A stretch of 26,726 nt of DNA from an uncultured Nitratifractor sp. (GTDB taxonomy: Bacteria > Campylobacterota > Campylobacteria > Campylobacterales > Sulfurovaceae), in NCBI GenBank assembly GCA_964393855.1, contig CAYMUV010000001.1, forward strand, positions 1-26,726. The letters run 5' to 3'. Every line of letters starts with the position of its first letter. Position 1 is the stretch's first letter. Shown here piece by piece: positions 10,369 through 21,382 of the stretch. The position numbers and the translations under genes were made by a program. The notes below the pieces were generated by a model. It did not search any database and was not told where the DNA came from. It worked only from the letters and a program-made list of their open reading frames with translations.

Positions 10369-10449
10369 ATGAACTACTATAAAATATTTGGTTTAATTTT
10401 TATTATCTATTCGCTAAGTATGGTCATTGGGGGCACATTTAATGGCTAA
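10369..10449 (+). CDS. Putative 26-aa single-pass membrane peptide (not in ORF track)
   Basis: MNYYKIFGLIFIIYSLSMVIGGTFNG*; SD AAGGGGAG at 10357-10364; the stop overlaps the next start (ATGGCTAA, 10442-10449). Confidence 0.55.
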   Translation: MNYYKIFGLIFIIYSLSMVIGGTFNG

Positions 10450-11263
10450 AATTAAGAAGATGAAAATAAAAAGAGTAAAAAAGCCATCTAAAGCTACTGT
10501 TATATATATTTTCTTAATTCCTCTATTTGTATCTACAATAAAAGAGCTATTTGCCAATAACTACTCTCTATTTTTATTAAAATTAATTGGTTTTGGTTTA
10601 ATTTTTGGTTCTATTAAATTAATAGATAAAGGCTTACTTAACGAGTTTAATTACAACAATAGCAATTTAGCTTTAGCCCCAAAGATAAAGTATAAACTAT
10701 TTGGATCAATTGCACTTACAATAGCTCTTTTATTTATAGTATTTACTACCTCTAACCTTACACTTATTAATGGGGTATTTAGTGCTGTTTTAGGTGGAGT
10801 TGGTGCATATATCTACTATGGTAAAGACCCAAGTGTAGATAAATTGCCAAAAGATAAAAGTGCAAACTATAAAAAAATTATCGAAAGTTTAAACGAAGCA
10901 AAAGAGAAACTTAAAAAAATTGAAAATAGCAATCAAAATATAGAAGATAAAAATTTAAAAAGTGCCATAGATAAAACATTAAGAAAAGCACACGATATTT
11001 TAAATACAATCGAGCAAGACCCAAAAGATATTAGTATTGTAAGAAAATTTATGGTTGTATATTTAGATGGTGTTAAAGATGTAATTTCTAAATATAACTC
11101 TATTGATAAAGAGGTATTAGATAGTAGCTACAAAGAGCGTTTAATCTCTTTGCTAGATGATGCAACTAAAAGATTCGATAAAGAGTTAGAGAGGTTAAAA
11201 TCTAACGACCTTTTTGATTTAGATGTACAAATAGATGCCCTTAAAGAGCAATTAAAACATTAA
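10442..11263 (+). CDS. XpaC-family (5-bromo-4-chloroindolyl phosphate hydrolysis family) membrane protein
   Basis: N-terminal hydrophobic segments ending YIYYGKDP, then a helical domain with IEQDPKDISIVRKFMVVYLDG and DLFDLDVQIDALKEQL, directly upstream of telA. ATG 10442 is preferred over TTG 10427. Confidence 0.75.
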   Translation: MAKIKKMKIKRVKKPSKATVIYIFLIPLFVSTIKELFANNYSLFLLKLIGFGLIFGSIKLIDKGLLNEFNYNNSNLALAPKIKYKLFGSIALTIALLFIVFTTSNLTLINGVFSAVLGGVGAYIYYGKDPSVDKLPKDKSANYKKIIESLNEAKEKLKKIENSNQNIEDKNLKSAIDKTLRKAHDILNTIEQDPKDISIVRKFMVVYLDGVKDVISKYNSIDKEVLDSSYKERLISLLDDATKRFDKELERLKSNDLFDLDVQIDALKEQLKH

Positions 11264-11277
11264 AAATAGGAGAATAA

Positions 11278-12417
11278 ATGGAAACTAAAGTTAAAGAGTT
11301 AGTAGAGGCAACAATAGAGAAACAAGATGAAAATTTACCAGCAGTTATTCCAGAAGAAGAGAGCAAATTACAAGAGGCTTTAAATGAAATAGACATTAAA
11401 GATAGAAACTCTGCAATATATTTTGGCTCTAAAGCTCAAGAGAAGTTAGATGATATATCTAATAAGATGCTAGATGGTGTTAAAAACAAAGATACAGGCA
11501 AAAGTGGTGAATTACTTAATAATATGGTAGCTACACTTAGAGGCTTTGATATGGATGAGTTTAATCCAAATAAAAAGCTTCATTGGTGGCAAAAACTATT
11601 TGGGTTTACAAAACCTCTTACAAAATTTGTACAAAAGTACGAAGAGGTAAAAGACCAAATAGATGCAATATCAGATGATTTAGAAAAACATAAAGCAAAA
11701 TTAACAACAGATATAGTAGCCTTAGATAAACTTTATGATGCTAACTTAGACTATTTTAGACAATTAGAGTTATATATAAAAGCTGGCGAAATAAAACTAT
11801 CTGAGCTAAATGAAAAAATTATACCAGAGTATGAGAGCAAAACTAAAGATAGTGATATGTTAAGTATTCAAGAGCTAAAAGAGATAAGAGGTTTTAGAGA
11901 TGACTTAGAAAGAAGAGTTCACGACTTAAAACTATCTAGACAAGTTGCAATGCAAGCTCTACCTAGTATTCGTCTTATTCAAGAAAATGATAAATCTTTA
12001 ATAAATAAAATTGGCTCTACTTTGGTAAATACTATTCCACTATGGCGTAATCAACTTGCTCAAACTGTTACAATTTTTAGAAGCCACGAAGCTGCAAAAG
12101 CTATTAAAAGTGCTAACGATTTAACAAATGACTTATTAGAACAGAGTGCCGAAGGTTTAAGAGAAGCAAATAAAGAAGTTAGAGAGCAAATGGAGCGTGG
12201 TGTATTTGATATAGAGAGTATCAAAAAAGCTAATAATACTCTTATAGAGACACTTAATGATTCTATTAAGATATCTCAACTTGGTAAAGAGGCAAGAGCT
12301 AAAGCAGAAATAGAGTTAAAAAATACAGAAAAAGCTCTAAAAGAGGCTCTTTTAGCAACTAAAGCAAAACAAGAGGCTTTAGATAGTGGTAAACAATTAG
12401 AAACGGATAGCAAATAG
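11278..12417 (+). CDS. telA: Toxic anion resistance protein, TelA family
   Basis: IYFGSKAQEKL, LYDANLDYFRQLELYIKAG, LERRVHDLKLSRQVAMQALPSIRLIQEND and TIPLWRNQLAQ; SD AGGAG. Confidence 0.9.
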   Translation: METKVKELVEATIEKQDENLPAVIPEEESKLQEALNEIDIKDRNSAIYFGSKAQEKLDDISNKMLDGVKNKDTGKSGELLNNMVATLRGFDMDEFNPNKKLHWWQKLFGFTKPLTKFVQKYEEVKDQIDAISDDLEKHKAKLTTDIVALDKLYDANLDYFRQLELYIKAGEIKLSELNEKIIPEYESKTKDSDMLSIQELKEIRGFRDDLERRVHDLKLSRQVAMQALPSIRLIQENDKSLINKIGSTLVNTIPLWRNQLAQTVTIFRSHEAAKAIKSANDLTNDLLEQSAEGLREANKEVREQMERGVFDIESIKKANNTLIETLNDSIKISQLGKEARAKAEIELKNTEKALKEALLATKAKQEALDSGKQLETDSK

Positions 12418-12422
12418 ATAAT

Positions 12423-13292
12423 ATGAAATTTATCGACTGGCTTTTTGGTGACTTATTAGAGAACATTGTCCACAAAGGAGATTTAACTGAACTTGTTTGG
12501 AATGTACCAAATAAAGAGAAAGAGATTAGATACAATACTAAATTAAAAGTACCTAAAGATTTTGTAGCTCTAGTTAAACTAAATAAAGATATTTTAGATA
12601 TTTTAGAGAGTGGTGCTTATAGATTAAATCGTATCTCTTTACCAAATATTGCGCAAGAGCTAGGCTGGAACGAAGAGACAGATGACCCTTTTAATGCTGA
12701 TATTTATTATATAAATAATCTAGGTTTCGAAGTTAAATTTAAAAATGGCTCTCCTATACTTATAAGGGATTTAAGAAATAATATAATTAAACTAAATAGT
12801 AATGGGTTTTTTATCTGTAAAATTATAGATTATAATACTTTTCTCAATCATATTATGTATAAAAAATTAAAACTTGATAATAGTAGTGTATCAGAGTACC
12901 TAGCAAAACTATTTATTGCCTTAATGCCTGATATTTTGGCAAATAGAGTATTACCTCTATCTAAGCTTTTAGAAGAGCACGAAGAGTTTATAAACTTTTT
13001 AATACATTCGTATAATGAAAAACTGAATGAAATAGGCTTACAAATCTCACACTTAACAATTAAAACTACCAATATTGAAGAGAAAAACATATATACAGGA
13101 ATAGATAAAGATAAAAAGAGAGAAAATAAAAATGTCTACTACATAATTCAAAACTCTAAAGAGAGTGGTCCATATACAAAAAGCGATATTTTGTGGATGT
13201 TAGATAATTTCGAATTAAATCCAAATAGCTATATATGGAGAGAGGGCTTAAATAATTGGTTAAAAATCAGGGATTTAATGGATTTTGAATAG
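12423..13292 (+). CDS. Divergent SPFH/Band-7 (YdjI-like) protein with C-terminal GYF_2 domain
   Basis: LVW...EIRYNTKLKV...GAYRL...LP...PFNADIYYIN...PILIRD resembles YdjI-type SPFH; the C-terminal YYIIQNSKESGPYT...SYIWREGLNNW fits the GYF_2 (DUF4339) pattern. Confidence 0.7.
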   Translation: MKFIDWLFGDLLENIVHKGDLTELVWNVPNKEKEIRYNTKLKVPKDFVALVKLNKDILDILESGAYRLNRISLPNIAQELGWNEETDDPFNADIYYINNLGFEVKFKNGSPILIRDLRNNIIKLNSNGFFICKIIDYNTFLNHIMYKKLKLDNSSVSEYLAKLFIALMPDILANRVLPLSKLLEEHEEFINFLIHSYNEKLNEIGLQISHLTIKTTNIEEKNIYTGIDKDKKRENKNVYYIIQNSKESGPYTKSDILWMLDNFELNPNSYIWREGLNNWLKIRDLMDFE

Positions 13293-13314
13293 TTCTATTT
13301 TTTCTTAAAAGAGA

Positions 13315-13686
13315 TTAAGCCTTTTTTGGCTTATTCTCTTTTTTTGTACTATCTTTTTTCTTAGCTTTTTGGCCCATAGCATCAGATTTATCTAGCGTTC
13401 TATCTAAAGTTGATTGAGGTCCAAGCAGTTCTGGGTCTTGCTCTTGGCTATCTAAACTAAATGGCTCCGGTTTTAAACCATATTTATTATCTTTAGTAAC
13501 AACTTTGCTCTCTTCTATAGGTGTAACGATAGTCTTTGCTTGCTCAACTGCAGGTGTAGCCTCGATACTTTCTACAACTGTTACATTATTATCTTTAGGC
13601 TTATTGTCTGGAGCCGGAGAACTCGTAGCAACACAACCAGAAACTAAAAATGAAAAAATAGCCAATATAAAAACTTTAATATTCAC
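13315..13686 (-). CDS. Lipoprotein of unknown function with DPELLGPQ motif (copy A, 123 aa)
   Basis: GTG start behind AAAAGGAG; lipobox LVSGC (Cys18); low-complexity body. Confidence 0.8.
   Translation of the reverse strand: MNIKVFILAIFSFLVSGCVATSSPAPDNKPKDNNVTVVESIEATPAVEQAKTIVTPIEESKVVTKDNKYGLKPEPFSLDSQEQDPELLGPQSTLDRTLDKSDAMGQKAKKKDSTKKENKPKKA
13402..13467 (-). repeat. Coding repeat copy 1 (EPFSLDSQEQDPELLGPQSTLD)
   Basis: 15 of 22 aa are identical to the copy at 14020-14085. Confidence 0.9.
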
Positions 13687-13723
13687 AAACTCTCCTTTTG
13701 TATAAACTTTTTATAGATTTTAC

Positions 13724-13751
13724 TTGACTTTTGTTAAATTTTTGATAAAAT
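13724..13751 (+). promoter_or_regulatory. sigma70-type promoter for thiS
   Basis: TTGACT (13724-13729), N16, then TAAAAT (13746-13751) preceded by TGn (extended -10). Confidence 0.6.
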
Positions 13752-13774
13752 CAAAGATAAAAATAGGGTTAATA

Positions 13775-13975
13775 ATGAATATAGTAGTAAATGGAGAAAA
13801 TTTTGAATTCAAAGAGCCTATAACACTTATAGAGGTTATAAAATCACTAAAGGTAGAAAGCAAAGTAATGGCAGCTGCAATCAACATGGAAATTATTAAA
13901 AAAGATAATTGGACTACACAAAAAGTAGAAGATGGAGACAAAATAGAGTTACTCCACTTTGTTGGTGGAGGTTAA
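13775..13975 (+). CDS. thiS: Sulfur carrier protein ThiS (66 aa)
   Basis: MNIVVNGE...AAAINMEIIKK..W...L/V.DGDKIELLHFVGGG with C-terminal Gly-Gly. The start at ATG 13775 gives the typical length and lies downstream of the promoter. Confidence 0.9.
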   Translation: MNIVVNGENFEFKEPITLIEVIKSLKVESKVMAAAINMEIIKKDNWTTQKVEDGDKIELLHFVGGG

Positions 13976-14466
13976 ATTTTTTTTGCCTCTTTGCTCTCTT
14001 TTTTTACTAATGGATTTGAATCTAATGTAGTTTGAGGTCCTAAAAGTTCGGGGTCACTCTCGTGTTTTTCTATACTATATGGTTCTTTATATACTTTTGC
14101 AACTTTTTTGTGAACTCTTTTTACTCTTTTAGAAGCACTTTTTTTAACAACTTTTTTCTCTTTGCTTTCAACTTTACTTTTAATTTTGCTTTTAATTTTT
14201 TTAGTTACTTTTTTATAGTTATCTACTTTTAAATTCGGTTTAGATGGTGTATATAATACTTTAGGTTGCTCTTTACTTATTGTTTCAACAACTTTAACAT
14301 CATTCGTTGTCGTTACTTTTCGTTGTTTTACAGCTAAAGTTTGTTTTTTATGTAAATTATACTCTTTTAATTTTTTAGCATAGACTCTTTGCTTAATTCT
14401 ATCTACTACACAACCATTCATTGCTATTGAGACAATAACTGTTAAAAGCAAAATTTTTTTGTTCAC
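13972..14466 (-). CDS. Lys-rich lipoprotein of unknown function with DPELLGPQ motif (copy B, 164 aa)
   Basis: GTG start behind AAAAGGAG; lipobox AMNGC (Cys19); the stop overlaps the thiS stop (TTAA). Confidence 0.8.
   Translation of the reverse strand: MNKKILLLTVIVSIAMNGCVVDRIKQRVYAKKLKEYNLHKKQTLAVKQRKVTTTNDVKVVETISKEQPKVLYTPSKPNLKVDNYKKVTKKIKSKIKSKVESKEKKVVKKSASKRVKRVHKKVAKVYKEPYSIEKHESDPELLGPQTTLDSNPLVKKESKEAKKI
14020..14085 (-). repeat. Coding repeat copy 2 (EPYSIEKHESDPELLGPQTTLD)
   Basis: 15 of 22 aa are identical to the copy at 13402-13467; third codon positions differ at several sites. Confidence 0.9.
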
Positions 14467-14511
14467 AAGTGCTCCTTTTTTTACACAATTATATATTAAC
14501 TAATATAAATT

Positions 14512-14862
14512 TTAGTTAAAAATAATGGCAACAATTGCAATTGCGAACTCTTTTTCGTGAGAAATCGATAAAGATGACTCTAAAATGTCAAATCTTTTAC
14601 TCTTAATGGAAAAAAATGGAGCACCTTTACTATTTTTTTCTATAACTATATCTTTAAAACTAAGCTCTTTTCCTATGCCACAACCTAATGCTTTAGATAT
14701 AGCCTCTTTTGCTGCCCAAAAACCTGCAATAGTCTCTACCTTTTTTGCAATTTTAATCTCTTCTTTACTTAAAAATTTAGATAAAAATTTTTCTCCAAAT
14801 TTATCTATAGACTCTTCTATCCTAGATATGCTTACTATATCTGTTCCAACTTTTATTGCCAT
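14512..14862 (-). CDS. acpS: Holo-[acyl-carrier-protein] synthase
   Basis: VGTDIVSISRI, AGFWAAKEAISKALG, GAP and LSISHE; starts 1 nt after the radA stop. Confidence 0.93.
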   Translation of the reverse strand: MAIKVGTDIVSISRIEESIDKFGEKFLSKFLSKEEIKIAKKVETIAGFWAAKEAISKALGCGIGKELSFKDIVIEKNSKGAPFFSIKSKRFDILESSLSISHEKEFAIAIVAIIFN

Positions 14863-14863
14863 T

Positions 14864-16207
14864 TTACATCCAATCTATAATTTTCTCTACACTTTGAGCT
14901 ACATAACATTTTAAATTTAAATCTTCTAAAGGTTTACTAGGAGTTATGGCGTTAGTAAAGCCTTGGGTTTTTGCCTCTTTTAATCTCTGCATCATATTTG
15001 GCACATCTCTAACCTCTCCTGTTAAGCTTACTTCCCCAATAAACATAGTTTTGCTACTTAGCTTTCTATCCCTAAAACTACTAAGTATTGCAGCAATAAT
15101 AGCTAAATCTGCACTTGTCTCTTGCACCTTAATTCCACCTACAACATTTACAAAAATATCATAAGTTCCAAGTGGTAAATCTAATTTTTTTTCTAATAGA
15201 GCTAAAAGCATATTTAACCTATTTGTATCAAAACCTGTTGAACTTCTTTTTGAGTTAGCATAACTTGGAGTAACTAAAGCCTGAACCTCTATAACTATTG
15301 GTCTAGAACCCTCCATAATTATAGTAAGAGCAGAACCTGGCATAAGTGTATCTTTATTAAAAAATCTTTCACTCATACTTTTTGCATCTCTTAAGCCATT
15401 GCTATCCATCTCAAATATACCAACTTCGTTAGTAGAGCCAAATCTGTTTTTAAAACTTCGAAGTAACCTTAAATCGCTATTTGTATCACCTTCGAAATAG
15501 AGAACTGTATCAACCATATGCTCTAAAACTCTAGGTCCTGCAATAGAGCCATCTTTAGTAATATGCCCAATTATAAATATAGGTATGTTTTTAGATTTTG
15601 CAAGTCGCATTAACTCAAATGTTATTGCTCTAACTTGTGTTACAGAACCTGGAGCAGAAGGAACATTATTGTCGTAAATAGTTTGAATCGAATCTATAAC
15701 TATAAATTGATAATCTTTGCTCTCTATCTCTTCTATAACATTTTCCATATTTATCTCTGCTAACAAATATAGATTATCACGATTTGCTCCGAGTCTGTCG
15801 CCTCTAAGTTTAATTTGAGATGCCGACTCTTCACCAGAAACATATAAAATATCTGCTCCTGTAGCTGCTAAATTACCAGCTATTTTTAAAAGCAGAGTAG
15901 ATTTACCAATTCCTGGGCTTCCACCAATAAGTGTTAAAGAACCAGGAACAATACCACCACCTAAAACTAAATCTAACTCTTTTGAATCACTACTAAATCT
16001 TACTACATCTTCGGCTTTTATTTTTGTAATAGGTATTGCCTTAGAGTCACTAATATTTTTAGAAGAACTCTTTTGCAAATACTCTATTTGCTCTTGATTT
16101 AACTCTATTAATGAGTCCCACGAATTACAACTTGGACATTTACCAGACCATCTAGGACTCTGAAAGCCACAATTTTGACACTCAAAAAGTGATTTCTTTT
16201 TTGCCAT
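14864..16207 (-). CDS. radA: DNA repair protein RadA/Sms
   Basis: C4 zinc finger (CQNCG...CPSC), Walker A GSPGIGKST, VSGEES, VIDSIQT, KNRFG and a Lon-like C-terminus. The second ATG (16207) fits the AGGA SD spacing. Confidence 0.97.
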   Translation of the reverse strand: MAKKKSLFECQNCGFQSPRWSGKCPSCNSWDSLIELNQEQIEYLQKSSSKNISDSKAIPITKIKAEDVVRFSSDSKELDLVLGGGIVPGSLTLIGGSPGIGKSTLLLKIAGNLAATGADILYVSGEESASQIKLRGDRLGANRDNLYLLAEINMENVIEEIESKDYQFIVIDSIQTIYDNNVPSAPGSVTQVRAITFELMRLAKSKNIPIFIIGHITKDGSIAGPRVLEHMVDTVLYFEGDTNSDLRLLRSFKNRFGSTNEVGIFEMDSNGLRDAKSMSERFFNKDTLMPGSALTIIMEGSRPIVIEVQALVTPSYANSKRSSTGFDTNRLNMLLALLEKKLDLPLGTYDIFVNVVGGIKVQETSADLAIIAAILSSFRDRKLSSKTMFIGEVSLTGEVRDVPNMMQRLKEAKTQGFTNAITPSKPLEDLNLKCYVAQSVEKIIDWM

Positions 16208-16305
16208 AACCATTCCTATTTTTTAAATACATTAATTAATATAAAATAATATCTTCTATTTTATCTAAAAATAATGAAATTTATAGGTTTATTTTTCTTT
16301 ATTTA

Positions 16306-19915: not shown

Positions 19916-21382
19916 TTGATAACTACAATAATAAGTTTTCTATTTTCGGTTTTTGGGGCATTAGTTGGCTGGTTTGCGGCTCAATTTTATGCAAAAAATA
20001 AGTTTAAAGAGTATGAATTAGAAGCAAAAGCTAAAGCTAATGTAATTAAAAATGAAGCATCAGAGATAATAAACAATGCAAAAGAGCAAAGCAAAGAGTT
20101 TGAATTAAAACTTAAGCAACAAGAGCTATCTTTAAAAGATAAAGAGCAAACATTAGAGAGAAAAGCAAGATTAATTAACGAAAAAGAGATACGCTTAGAA
20201 GAGCTTGCTAAAAAACAAGACAATACATTAAATGAACTTACAGAAAAGCTATCTAAAGTAGCATCTATGACAAAAAAAGAGGCAAGAGAACATCTGCTAG
20301 AGCTTCATAAAAAAGAGATAGAATCAGACTTAGCAAAAGAGTCAAGAAAAATGATTAAACTAGCGAAAGAGGAGCAAGAGAAGTTAGCAAACTATATGCT
20401 AGCACAAGCTGTTGCAAGATATGCTGGTGATTTTGCAGGAGAGAGATTAATAAATAGCATTAACCTTCCTAGTGATGAGCACAAAGGTAGAATTATTGGT
20501 AAAGAGGGTCGAAATATTAAGGCACTTGAACAACTATTAGGCGTAGATATAATTATAGATGAAACCCCTGGAGTTATATTAGTTAGTAACTTTAATTTAT
20601 ATAGAAGAGCTATTGCAACAGAGGTAATTAAGCGATTAGTAGAAGATGGCAGAATCCATCCAGGCAAGATAGAAGAGATACACGAAAAAGTACAAAAAGA
20701 GTTTGAGCAAAAGATATTTGAAGAGGGAGAGAGAGTAGTATTAGATTTAGGTCTATACCCTATGCATGAAGAGCTTATAAAATTGATTGGTAGATTAAAA
20801 TATCGTGCAAGTTATGGACAAAATACTCTACTACACTCTCTTGAAGTTGCAAGATTATCTAAAAGTTTAGCTGCAGAGATGGGTGGAGATGAGAAACTTG
20901 CTCTAAGAGCTGGCTTGCTACACGATATTGGTAAAGCACTAACACAAGATTTCGATGGAAATCATGTAGATTTAGGCGCAGAACTTTGTAGAAAATATAA
21001 TGAACACCCTATTGTAATTAATGCAATATATGCACACCACGGACACGAAGAGCCAGTTTCGGTAGAGAGTGCAGCAGTTTGTACTGCAGATATATTAAGT
21101 GCAGCAAGACCAGGAGCAAGAAGAGAGGTGTTAGAGAGCTTTACAAAAAGGGTAAAAGAGCTAGAGAAAATTGCACTAAGCTACAACGGTGTAATGCAAG
21201 CTTATGCTATTAATGCAGGTAGAGAGATTAGAGTATTTATAGACTCTATGGAAGTTAGCGACGATGAACTTGCTCTCCTTACACACAATATTGCAAAAGA
21301 TATAGAAAATAAGCTACAATATCCAGGAGAGATTAAAGTACACGCAATTAGACAGACAAAAGCTATCGAATTTGCAAAATAA
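19916..21382 (+). CDS. rny: Ribonuclease Y
   Basis: N-terminal TM, coiled coil, KH domain (KGRIIGKEGRNI), HD domain (LLHDIGKA, HH, AD.LSAARPGAR) and AINAGREIRV. The likely start is TTG 19916 behind AAAGGAAG; the track gives 19892. Confidence 0.96.
   Translation: MITTIISFLFSVFGALVGWFAAQFYAKNKFKEYELEAKAKANVIKNEASEIINNAKEQSKEFELKLKQQELSLKDKEQTLERKARLINEKEIRLEELAKKQDNTLNELTEKLSKVASMTKKEAREHLLELHKKEIESDLAKESRKMIKLAKEEQEKLANYMLAQAVARYAGDFAGERLINSINLPSDEHKGRIIGKEGRNIKALEQLLGVDIIIDETPGVILVSNFNLYRRAIATEVIKRLVEDGRIHPGKIEEIHEKVQKEFEQKIFEEGERVVLDLGLYPMHEELIKLIGRLKYRASYGQNTLLHSLEVARLSKSLAAEMGGDEKLALRAGLLHDIGKALTQDFDGNHVDLGAELCRKYNEHPIVINAIYAHHGHEEPVSVESAAVCTADILSAARPGARREVLESFTKRVKELEKIALSYNGVMQAYAINAGREIRVFIDSMEVSDDELALLTHNIAKDIENKLQYPGEIKVHAIRQTKAIEFAK

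Follow-up and report, generated by a model that had tools for sequence, protein, structure and literature searches.

A family of predicted lipoproteins of Sulfurovaceae sharing a conserved short peptide, with one copy divergent from thiS

Two Predicted Lipoprotein Genes on Either Side of thiS

The window, i.e., the whole 26,726-nucleotide stretch of DNA that was analysed, belongs to a metagenome-assembled genome (MAG; 57% complete, 996 kb, 31% GC) and carries two predicted lipoprotein genes on its reverse strand, lipoA (13315..13686, 123 aa) and lipoB (13972..14466, 164 aa). Read together with its orthologs of the same layout (P0004-P0012, P0030), lipoA is a short form of the A subfamily that lacks the C-terminal domain described below, and lipoB, read with orthologs P0016-P0029, is the B subfamily member in the slot downstream of acpS. 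Between them lies thiS (13775..13975, forward strand), which encodes a 66-aa sulfur carrier ending in ...HFVGGG, with matches above cut-off to PF02597 (8.7e-15) and TIGR01683 (1.1e-20, 73.7 bits vs a cut-off of 37.45); the antisense position of thiS between twin genes, put forward in the original prediction, is therefore confirmed. The stop codons of thiS and lipoB overlap (13972-13975), and a sequence scan places a terminator-like hairpin at these convergent 3′ ends (13952..13970, forward strand).

The open reading frames of the twin genes and the 22-aa block that was said to unite them were all reproduced. BLASTP aligns EPFSLDSQEQDPELLGPQSTLD of lipoA with EPYSIEKHESDPELLGPQTTLD of lipoB at 15/22 identical residues (E 2e-10) and finds no other similarity between the two proteins, which bears out the further claim that they are dissimilar outside the motif. 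Among the 22 codons of the block, 10 are identical, 5 differ synonymously, as had been noticed, and 7 differ non-synonymously. The lipoA copy spans residues 74-95 (13402..13467, reverse strand; BLASTP and codon analysis; profile hit 13384-13494), and the lipoB copy, with the extension typical of its subfamily, is EPYSIEKHESDPELLGPQTTLDSNPL, residues 128-153 (14008..14085, reverse strand; BLASTP and alignment; profile hit 13999-14112). As the original prediction had it, both genes start with GTG preceded by AAAAGGAG-N3-TT, and both signal peptides end in Gly-Cys-Val, within a lipobox that reads VSGC-V in lipoA and MNGC-V in lipoB. The linkers are likewise as unlike as claimed, with 55 aa, a net charge of -1 and a pI of 5.2 in lipoA vs 108 aa, a net charge of +29 and a pI of 10.5 in lipoB; the C-terminal tail is basic in both. 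The number of versions in the genome had to be corrected from two to at least three, a third paralog being found on contig C16 of the same genome, where it is interrupted by the contig end right after ...KPEPYSLSSKKRDPELLGPQ; its linker is the longest (~187 residues) and has a net charge of +50.

Conservation of the Motif and Divergence of the Tethers

The original prediction had proposed to follow the motif with a hidden Markov model. A 38-column motif profile, searched against 1.84 billion protein cluster representatives, matched 106 clusters at E<=1e-3, of which 72 also passed E<=1e-10, so the motif is conserved beyond the source genome, and its recurrence in 106 clusters and in the third paralog exceeds chance. 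The consensus is (K)PEP[YF]S[LI]-x5-DPELLGPQ[ST]T[LI]. In 63 distinct DNA versions, E-P-[YF]-S-[LI]-x5-D-P-E-L-L-G-P-Q-x-T shows no or hardly any variation, while its codons vary freely. E, P, S, D and Q, none of them part of the pattern by which the 63 versions were gathered, do not change at all, and their codons differ synonymously in 0.31-0.67 of sequence pairs. Because the codons of invariant residues vary synonymously, the constraint bears on the peptide and not on the DNA or RNA. Judged by this codon pattern, lipoA and lipoB are real genes under protein-level purifying selection centred on the motif.

The matched proteins are small (58-293 aa, one 654-aa low-complexity match excepted), which indicates that the motif is not fused to a large domain. 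It sits 55-190 residues from the lipid cysteine, invariably between the anchor and the C-terminal module, and the linkers around it cannot be aligned and vary in length and charge. The proposal that a short motif is the only element under selection thus stands in part: selection on the motif is strong and at the protein level and the linkers drift, but lipoB also keeps an N-terminal helix (NGC-x-x-DRIKQR) and an LYxPS block.

Word-based homology searches yield two separate ortholog sets, each with its own residues (FSL/QST in A; YSI/QTT...SNPL in B). These residues mark A and B as separate subfamilies, each orthologous throughout the genus, which supports the old duplication that had been supposed. 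The two subfamilies and the third copy carry the same peptide on different tethers. In a 28-sequence alignment, the B subfamily retains the invariant N-G-C, an x-D-R-I-K-Q-R segment, the LYxPS block and the extension ...GPQTTLxSNPL, and D22, I24 and R27 of the lipoB helix are conserved. This basic helix, CVVDRIKQRVYAKKL... (residues 19-50; 14317..14412, reverse strand), is predicted by AlphaFold2 to run from the lipid cysteine, with a mean pLDDT of 92-93 at residues 21-40, the remainder of the protein being low-confidence coil. The lipoB motif itself has a pLDDT of ~61-74 and no regular structure in the model. Lysine-rich C-termini are found in B orthologs, many of which end in K-I or K-G.

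Export Signals and Predicted Lipidation

Lipoproteins were recognized by a positive n-region, a short hydrophobic core and a lipobox of the form [LVI][ASTVI][GAS]-C. The N-terminus of lipoA (VNIK-VFILAIFSFLV-SGC) fits this description in full; its signal peptide and lipobox, VNIKVFILAIFSFLVSGC, were read directly from the sequence (13633..13686, reverse strand). The signal peptide of lipoB (14410..14466, reverse strand) ends in an atypical lipobox (AMNGC), whose N-G-C is invariant across the B subfamily, and the third paralog has LTNC; in both, the core and the cysteine are present and a single lipobox position is atypical (N at -2 and at -1, respectively). Nearly all family members have a signal peptide that leads into [GASN]-Cys, with a core of only 12-14 residues and the cysteine conserved at residues 16-25. 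The variants that are not lipoproteins bear ordinary signal peptides in place of the lipobox, as in one subgroup in which the signal peptide is followed by AYDAHHPDPMsILNG, which makes export the constant feature. Predicted export signals are thus conserved in the family, from which lipidation and a periplasmic location would follow. Judged from E. coli Sec substrates, export is disfavoured by a strongly basic early mature region such as that of lipoB, where it covers the first 18 mature residues. This region and the atypical lipoboxes are the main internal caveats to the predicted lipoprotein reading.

Long Forms with a C-Terminal Domain

Many of the matches outside the source genus are longer and consist of a lipobox, a linker, the motif, a second linker and a C-terminal domain of ~41 residues. 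The consensus of this domain is MTKSECIxxIGxxKFDxYxKKFGGExGAIRRCxILKRL, with two invariant cysteines, which fits an oxidising compartment. An AlphaFold2 model built from a 25-sequence alignment gives the domain three helices at pLDDT 96-98 and leaves the motif (~55-60) undocked and with no regular structure. The domain is restricted to the same GTDB family, where it occurs in five genera, and was found in none of 16 genomes of the source genus; of the 16 that were sampled for the motif, 14 keep it. Docking of the motif on its own C-terminal domain was accordingly ruled out, the motif being undocked in the model and persisting where the domain is absent. Conversely, in genus g3 the gene downstream of acpS keeps the domain, but EVQDDNYSPEYMYP replaces the motif. 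Since g3 has the domain without the motif and the source genus the motif without the domain, the two function independently. It is probable that lipoA, lipoB and the third paralog are truncated derivatives of a longer, likely ancestral form that have retained the motif.

Neither the proteins nor the domain correspond to a described family. No Pfam or NCBIfam family was assigned to lipoA, lipoB, ten long forms or 24 C-terminal domains; a PDB sequence search with the motif and domain profiles returned nothing beyond a chance match to UHRF1 (E=1); and a literature search for PELLGPQ retrieved no papers. The ESM Atlas returned the family's own cluster and nothing informative, including a TraV row at 0.82, which is below the useful range. 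Besides two uncharacterised relatives, fold searches with the long-form model gave only generic matches to three-helix folds (Z<=2.8). A relationship of the domain to the Cys-pair repeat of PsiF, of which the trace was one weak Foldseek row (E 5.1), was rejected, as 0/24 domain sequences match PF07769 at E<=10. The original prediction had recognized no described family, and these searches agree: the family is undescribed and, as a tethered envelope lipoprotein with a small conserved element, is a variant of a known theme.

Two Genomic Slots and a Shared Promoter Region

Among 62 distinct motif proteins with usable flanks, 33 are encoded divergently from thiS at a distance of 81-148 bp, 20 come immediately after radA-acpS with no thiS in the vicinity, and the remaining nine, located elsewhere, are third paralogs, signal-peptide variants or start-codon artefacts. 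The family therefore occupies two fixed genomic slots, A divergent from thiS and B just downstream of radA-acpS. An orphan thiS bracketed by the two lipoprotein genes proved to be general in the source genus. In the window, the genes that mark the B slot span 14512..16213 on the reverse strand (acpS, TIGR00516 5.4e-32; radA, from its translation and the Pfam families at related loci), and the same radA-acpS order is seen at loci L001, L050 and L070-L076 and in g3. A promoter-like site ahead of lipoB, inside the acpS 3′ end (TTGCCA-18-TATATT; 14502..14531, reverse strand), comes from a consensus scan and is not in itself evidence of function.

The outer neighbours of the thiS/lipoA pair vary widely and include type II secretion genes (L002), molybdoenzyme and YARHG genes (L005), NADH-dehydrogenase genes (L052), and ruvX with an M20 peptidase (L054); ThiS of the relatives' pairs is 41-61% identical to the window copy. 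The thiS gene is unlinked to thiG, which lies far away in complete relatives. The position of thiS is not incidental, since the divergent pair survives in many otherwise rearranged contexts. The 88-bp spacer of the window (13687..13774) holds a back-to-back promoter arrangement recognized by promoter scan and by conservation among relatives. On the thiS side (forward strand), the promoter is of the near-consensus extended -10 type, with a -35 element TTGACT (13724-13729) and a TG-extended -10 element TAAAAT (13746-13751). The block ATT(T/C)TAC-TTGAC-N17-(TG)ATAAAAT recurs in most of the 32 distinct spacers of relatives and corresponds to 13717-13751 in the window. Its conserved ATTTTA, which reads TAAAAT on the opposite strand, is likely the -10 element of lipoA (13717-13722, reverse strand, ~30 nt upstream of the lipoA start), in which case the two promoters would abut back to back, without any free DNA separating them. 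A compact promoter region, conserved among relatives, is thus common to lipoA and thiS, and the interleaving of the promoters could by itself account for the rarity with which the pair is separated.

Distribution within Sulfurovaceae

Among 41 close relatives, 14 of the 16 source-genus genomes carry the motif; of the eight other genera sampled from this GTDB family, two have it, and it was found in none of 16 further families of that order. The picture was similar when 301 genomes were sampled across the phylum, the motif being present in 5/12 genomes of the source GTDB family and in 0/289 Campylobacterota genomes outside it. No such gene follows acpS in genera g2, g4, g7, g8 and g27. This distribution suggests that the family arose within its GTDB family, and later losses may also account for absences; the motif-bearing genera look like one clade. 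Because most genera of the GTDB family to which they belong lack these proteins, any partner must be able to work without them. The matching contigs are labelled uncultured "Nitratifractor sp.", "Campylobacteraceae bacterium" and, in one case, "Sulfurovum sp.", and all come from vent or metagenome MAGs. DNA of the region was detected in hydrothermal-vent metagenome runs; no RNA dataset was listed as containing the region or lipoA alone.

A Tethered Peptide Presented to a Periplasmic Partner?

Our leading reading, which we hold tentatively and at somewhat less than even chances, is that the family presents a membrane-tethered short linear motif, on tethers of three lengths, to a periplasmic partner. 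Following Sec export and lipidation at the conserved cysteine, the protein would hang in the periplasm, where the flexible tether would display the motif, which would fold only upon binding, to a conserved protein of the periplasm or envelope. The paralogs would differ in reach and charge (~55 neutral residues, ~108 residues at +29 and ~187 at +50), and such graded versions may allow a single partner to be recruited, regulated or competed for at different envelope depths. From the conservation pattern alone, we infer that the motif is a binding site rather than a processing or modification site. According to the structural models, it is disordered and undocked on the family's own C-terminal domain, and it is retained in the genus without that domain. 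A tethered-peptide ligand for an envelope machine would be compatible with all these data. The broader proposal is more doubtful: that the family is a new class of envelope regulator, composed of a lipid anchor, a disordered ruler and an invariant 20-residue peptide, of which graded paralogs would tune a conserved periplasmic machine in vent Sulfurovaceae and one copy would be wired to thiS by an interleaved bidirectional promoter. As for candidate partners, the GYF_2 domain of a neighbouring SPFH protein was considered as a reader of the proline-rich motif and rejected, since the protein lacks an export signal and the adjacency is limited to the source genus. The conserved neighbours thiS and acpS both encode cytoplasmic proteins and give no clue to an envelope partner.

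Other explanations start from the same features. The lipoproteins may serve as structural tethers or spacers that, like Braun's lipoprotein, connect the membrane with peptidoglycan or with an outer-membrane protein; attachment would be through the motif or the lysine-rich C-terminus, and the tether lengths would set the envelope spacing. The modelled B helix that starts at the lipid cysteine, the lysine-rich ends of B orthologs with their frequent K-I or K-G termini and the graded lengths of the paralogs would all suit such a role, and Campylobacterota are not known to possess Lpp, which was counted in its favour. It is nevertheless unlikely, given that the C-terminal tails are conserved neither in sequence nor in length, that the long forms terminate in a folded domain instead, that Pfam and NCBIfam scans gave no Lpp or OmpA-like match, and that an invariant 20-residue peptide exceeds what peptidoglycan attachment normally needs. 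The motif has also been envisaged as the recognition site of a periplasmic protease or modifying enzyme, by which the C-terminal part (the three-helix domain of the long forms, the basic tail of A and B) would be released or marked. This we regard as quite unlikely: the motif does always lie between the anchor and the C-terminal module, and its invariant Ser, Thr, Pro and Gly-Pro-Gln positions resemble enzyme recognition sites, but in the source genus the releasable part is short, unconserved and of low complexity, and no protease or transferase gene occurs among the conserved neighbours. Taken by themselves, the invariant Ser/Thr and Pro positions suit a modification or cleavage site equally well. 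As to glycosylation, the Campylobacter N-glycosylation sequon (D/E-x-N-x-S/T) was rejected as the basis of the motif, being present within it in some B orthologs only.

A functional link to thiS, in which the A-type protein would act in some envelope process related to thiamine or sulfur and co-regulation would hold the pair together, appears improbable. The divergent arrangement of 33/62 motif proteins despite differing outer neighbours and the conserved interleaved promoter block in the spacer are what one would expect of such a link, as is the joint lack of thiS and the motif in two genomes of the source genus, which may reflect an assembly gap. Against it, ThiS is cytoplasmic and the lipoprotein is predicted to be exported, 20/62 copies follow acpS and have no thiS close by, a scan of 12800-15000 with Rfam gave neither a TPP riboswitch nor anything else above threshold, and the interleaved promoters alone could hinder splitting of the pair. 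Moreover, in Sulfurovum-type genomes thiS sits in a thiO-thiS-thiG-like cluster from which the lipoprotein is absent. The possibility that the proteins are not lipoproteins at all, the hydrophobic N-terminus being an uncleaved anchor and the lysine-rich body and motif being cytoplasmic, is very improbable. The positive-inside rule would indeed place in the cytoplasm segments as basic as the B and third-paralog bodies (+29 and +50), which directly follow the hydrophobic segment, and both lipoboxes are atypical. However, [GASN]-Cys is invariant at the end of the 12-14-residue hydrophobic core, a neutral mature region goes with a standard lipobox in the A subfamily, the signal peptides of sister variants are of the ordinary cleavable type, and a cysteine pair is conserved in the long forms. 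Finally, the chance that the reading frames are spurious or that a DNA or RNA element is conserved rather than a peptide is negligible. Its sole ground is the low-complexity, AT-rich sequence, and it is effectively refuted by the free codon turnover at invariant residues; full-length orthologs in genomes of very different GC content and the Rfam scan, which gave no hit, also speak against it.

The preferred reading, a tethered motif presented to a periplasmic partner, has the merit of a clean signature: the peptide is invariant, the linkers drift, and the paralogs differ mainly in tether length and charge, which makes the idea of tether length directly testable. The family has a narrow taxonomic range, and most of its carriers are uncultured; with its description, >100 clusters of "hypothetical proteins" known from metagenomes of hydrothermal vents acquire a name and a motif that defines them.

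Comparison with Known Systems

Several envelope proteins share part of this design. RcsF has a charged and disordered linker at its N-terminus, the length of which is important for envelope signalling, as well as a folded, disulfide-bonded domain, and is threaded through outer-membrane barrels. It resembles the motif proteins as a lipoprotein with a disordered charged linker and differs by its folded signalling domain; no homology was found. Lpp is an all-helical trimer attached to peptidoglycan through its C-terminal lysine. Like it, the motif proteins are small lipoproteins with a lysine-rich C-terminus and, in lipoB only, a helix from the lipid anchor, but they are mostly disordered, their tails are unconserved and their conserved element is internal. 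In PEP-CTERM signals, a PEP motif precedes a transmembrane helix and an arginine-rich C-terminus. Many family members do have a P-E-P tripeptide with basic residues some distance after it; yet the first proline is not kept in lipoB (YKEPYS), and the long forms do not have the motif at their C-terminus. An exosortase-type sorting signal was rejected, there being no hydrophobic segment after the motif in any member.

LpoB and LpoP are outer-membrane lipoproteins that activate class A penicillin-binding proteins through a folded C-terminal domain (PMC7267771, PMC4458516). They, too, are lineage-restricted lipoproteins whose long disordered tether spans the periplasm to reach a partner (PMC7267771, PMC4458516), to which the motif family would offer a ~20-residue peptide rather than a folded domain. 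A few family members bear an automatic "LpoB" label in JGI. Neither lipoA, lipoB nor the long forms, including the cluster so labelled, match the Pfam LpoB family (PF13036/COG3417) at E<=1. An LpoB-like role was rejected, the PBP1A proteins of motif genomes (G000, G004, G105) and motif-less genomes (G017, G323) being collinear, with no docking insert and with differences only in their disordered C-tails. The JGI label is thus unsupported, as there is neither an LpoB domain match nor a PBP1A docking insert. LptM (YifL) is a small lipoprotein of the LptDE translocon in which a short conserved peptide binds an envelope machine (PMC10567701). The likeness lies in a very small, largely disordered lipoprotein relying on such a peptide (PMC10567701); however, the conserved segment of LptM directly follows the lipid cysteine, and the motif described here lies 55-190 residues away, near the C-terminus. 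Furthermore, the two share no sequence similarity, the motif proteins match no Pfam lipoprotein family, the LPAM_2 type included, and LptM occurs in other taxa.

Until recently, small disordered lipoproteins whose action depends on a short peptide were overlooked, LptM being the one clear case; LpoB, LpoP and RcsF also have a disordered linker, but in these it is the folded domain that acts. Altogether, LpoB/LpoP, LptM, RcsF and Lpp are the closest functional analogues of the motif family; none is homologous to it, and the binding element differs in place and kind. The family would exemplify peptide-acting lipoproteins outside Gammaproteobacteria.

Genomic setting of lipoA, thiS and lipoB

The spacer between thiS and lipoA contains the block ATTTTAC-TTGACT-N16-TAAAAT (window 13717-13751), which is strongly conserved in most of the 32 distinct thiS/lipoA spacers of the relatives and which looks like two promoters placed back-to-back with zero free DNA separating them. 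At the opposite end of thiS, the stop codons of the convergent thiS and lipoB genes share 4 nt, and the final thiS codons make up a hairpin that resembles a terminator, CTCCAC...GTGGAG with a T-rich run behind it (both within window 13952-13975). Convergent with lipoA lie the co-oriented xpaC-like (Halogen_Hydrol), telA and SPFH(Band_7_1)+GYF_2 genes (window 10427-13292), an adjacency found only inside the window's genus (loci L001 and L002). In two genomes of this genus, G006 (99% complete) and G015, the motif and thiS were both not found, meaning either that the whole block is unassembled or that both were jointly lost.

A third paralog

A third motif paralog is encoded outside the window, on contig C16 of the same assembly (G000, C16:1-674, minus strand), where it is interrupted by the contig end. 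It combines an LTNC lipobox, a Lys-rich linker of ~187 aa with a net charge of +50, and the motif. An ABC-exporter gene lies immediately upstream, a setting that differs from the genomic contexts of third copies in relatives. In the G004 genome, a class A PBP-like gene, the second of its kind there and divergent (684 aa), is located ~8 kb away from the third paralog with the motif (C9:12451-12957 and 20938-21036).

Divergent family members

Some family variants do without a lipobox (P0100, P0102, P0107, P0109, P0116 and P0120; loci L073, L077 and L079). Their signal peptide is of the ordinary kind, and the conserved block AYDAHHPDPMsILNG comes after it; at one locus, such a variant adjoins a second protein with HHDPMAILNG. 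The acpS-downstream lipoprotein of genus g3, from the same GTDB family (L081:1748-2131 and L083:2027-2428; also L082 and L087), retains the C-terminal two-Cys domain, while EVQDDNYSPEYMYP replaces the KPEPYSL..DPELLGP of other members. Comparison of SPEYMYP with DPELLGP suggests that EVQDDNYSPEYMYP may be a diverged version of the motif.
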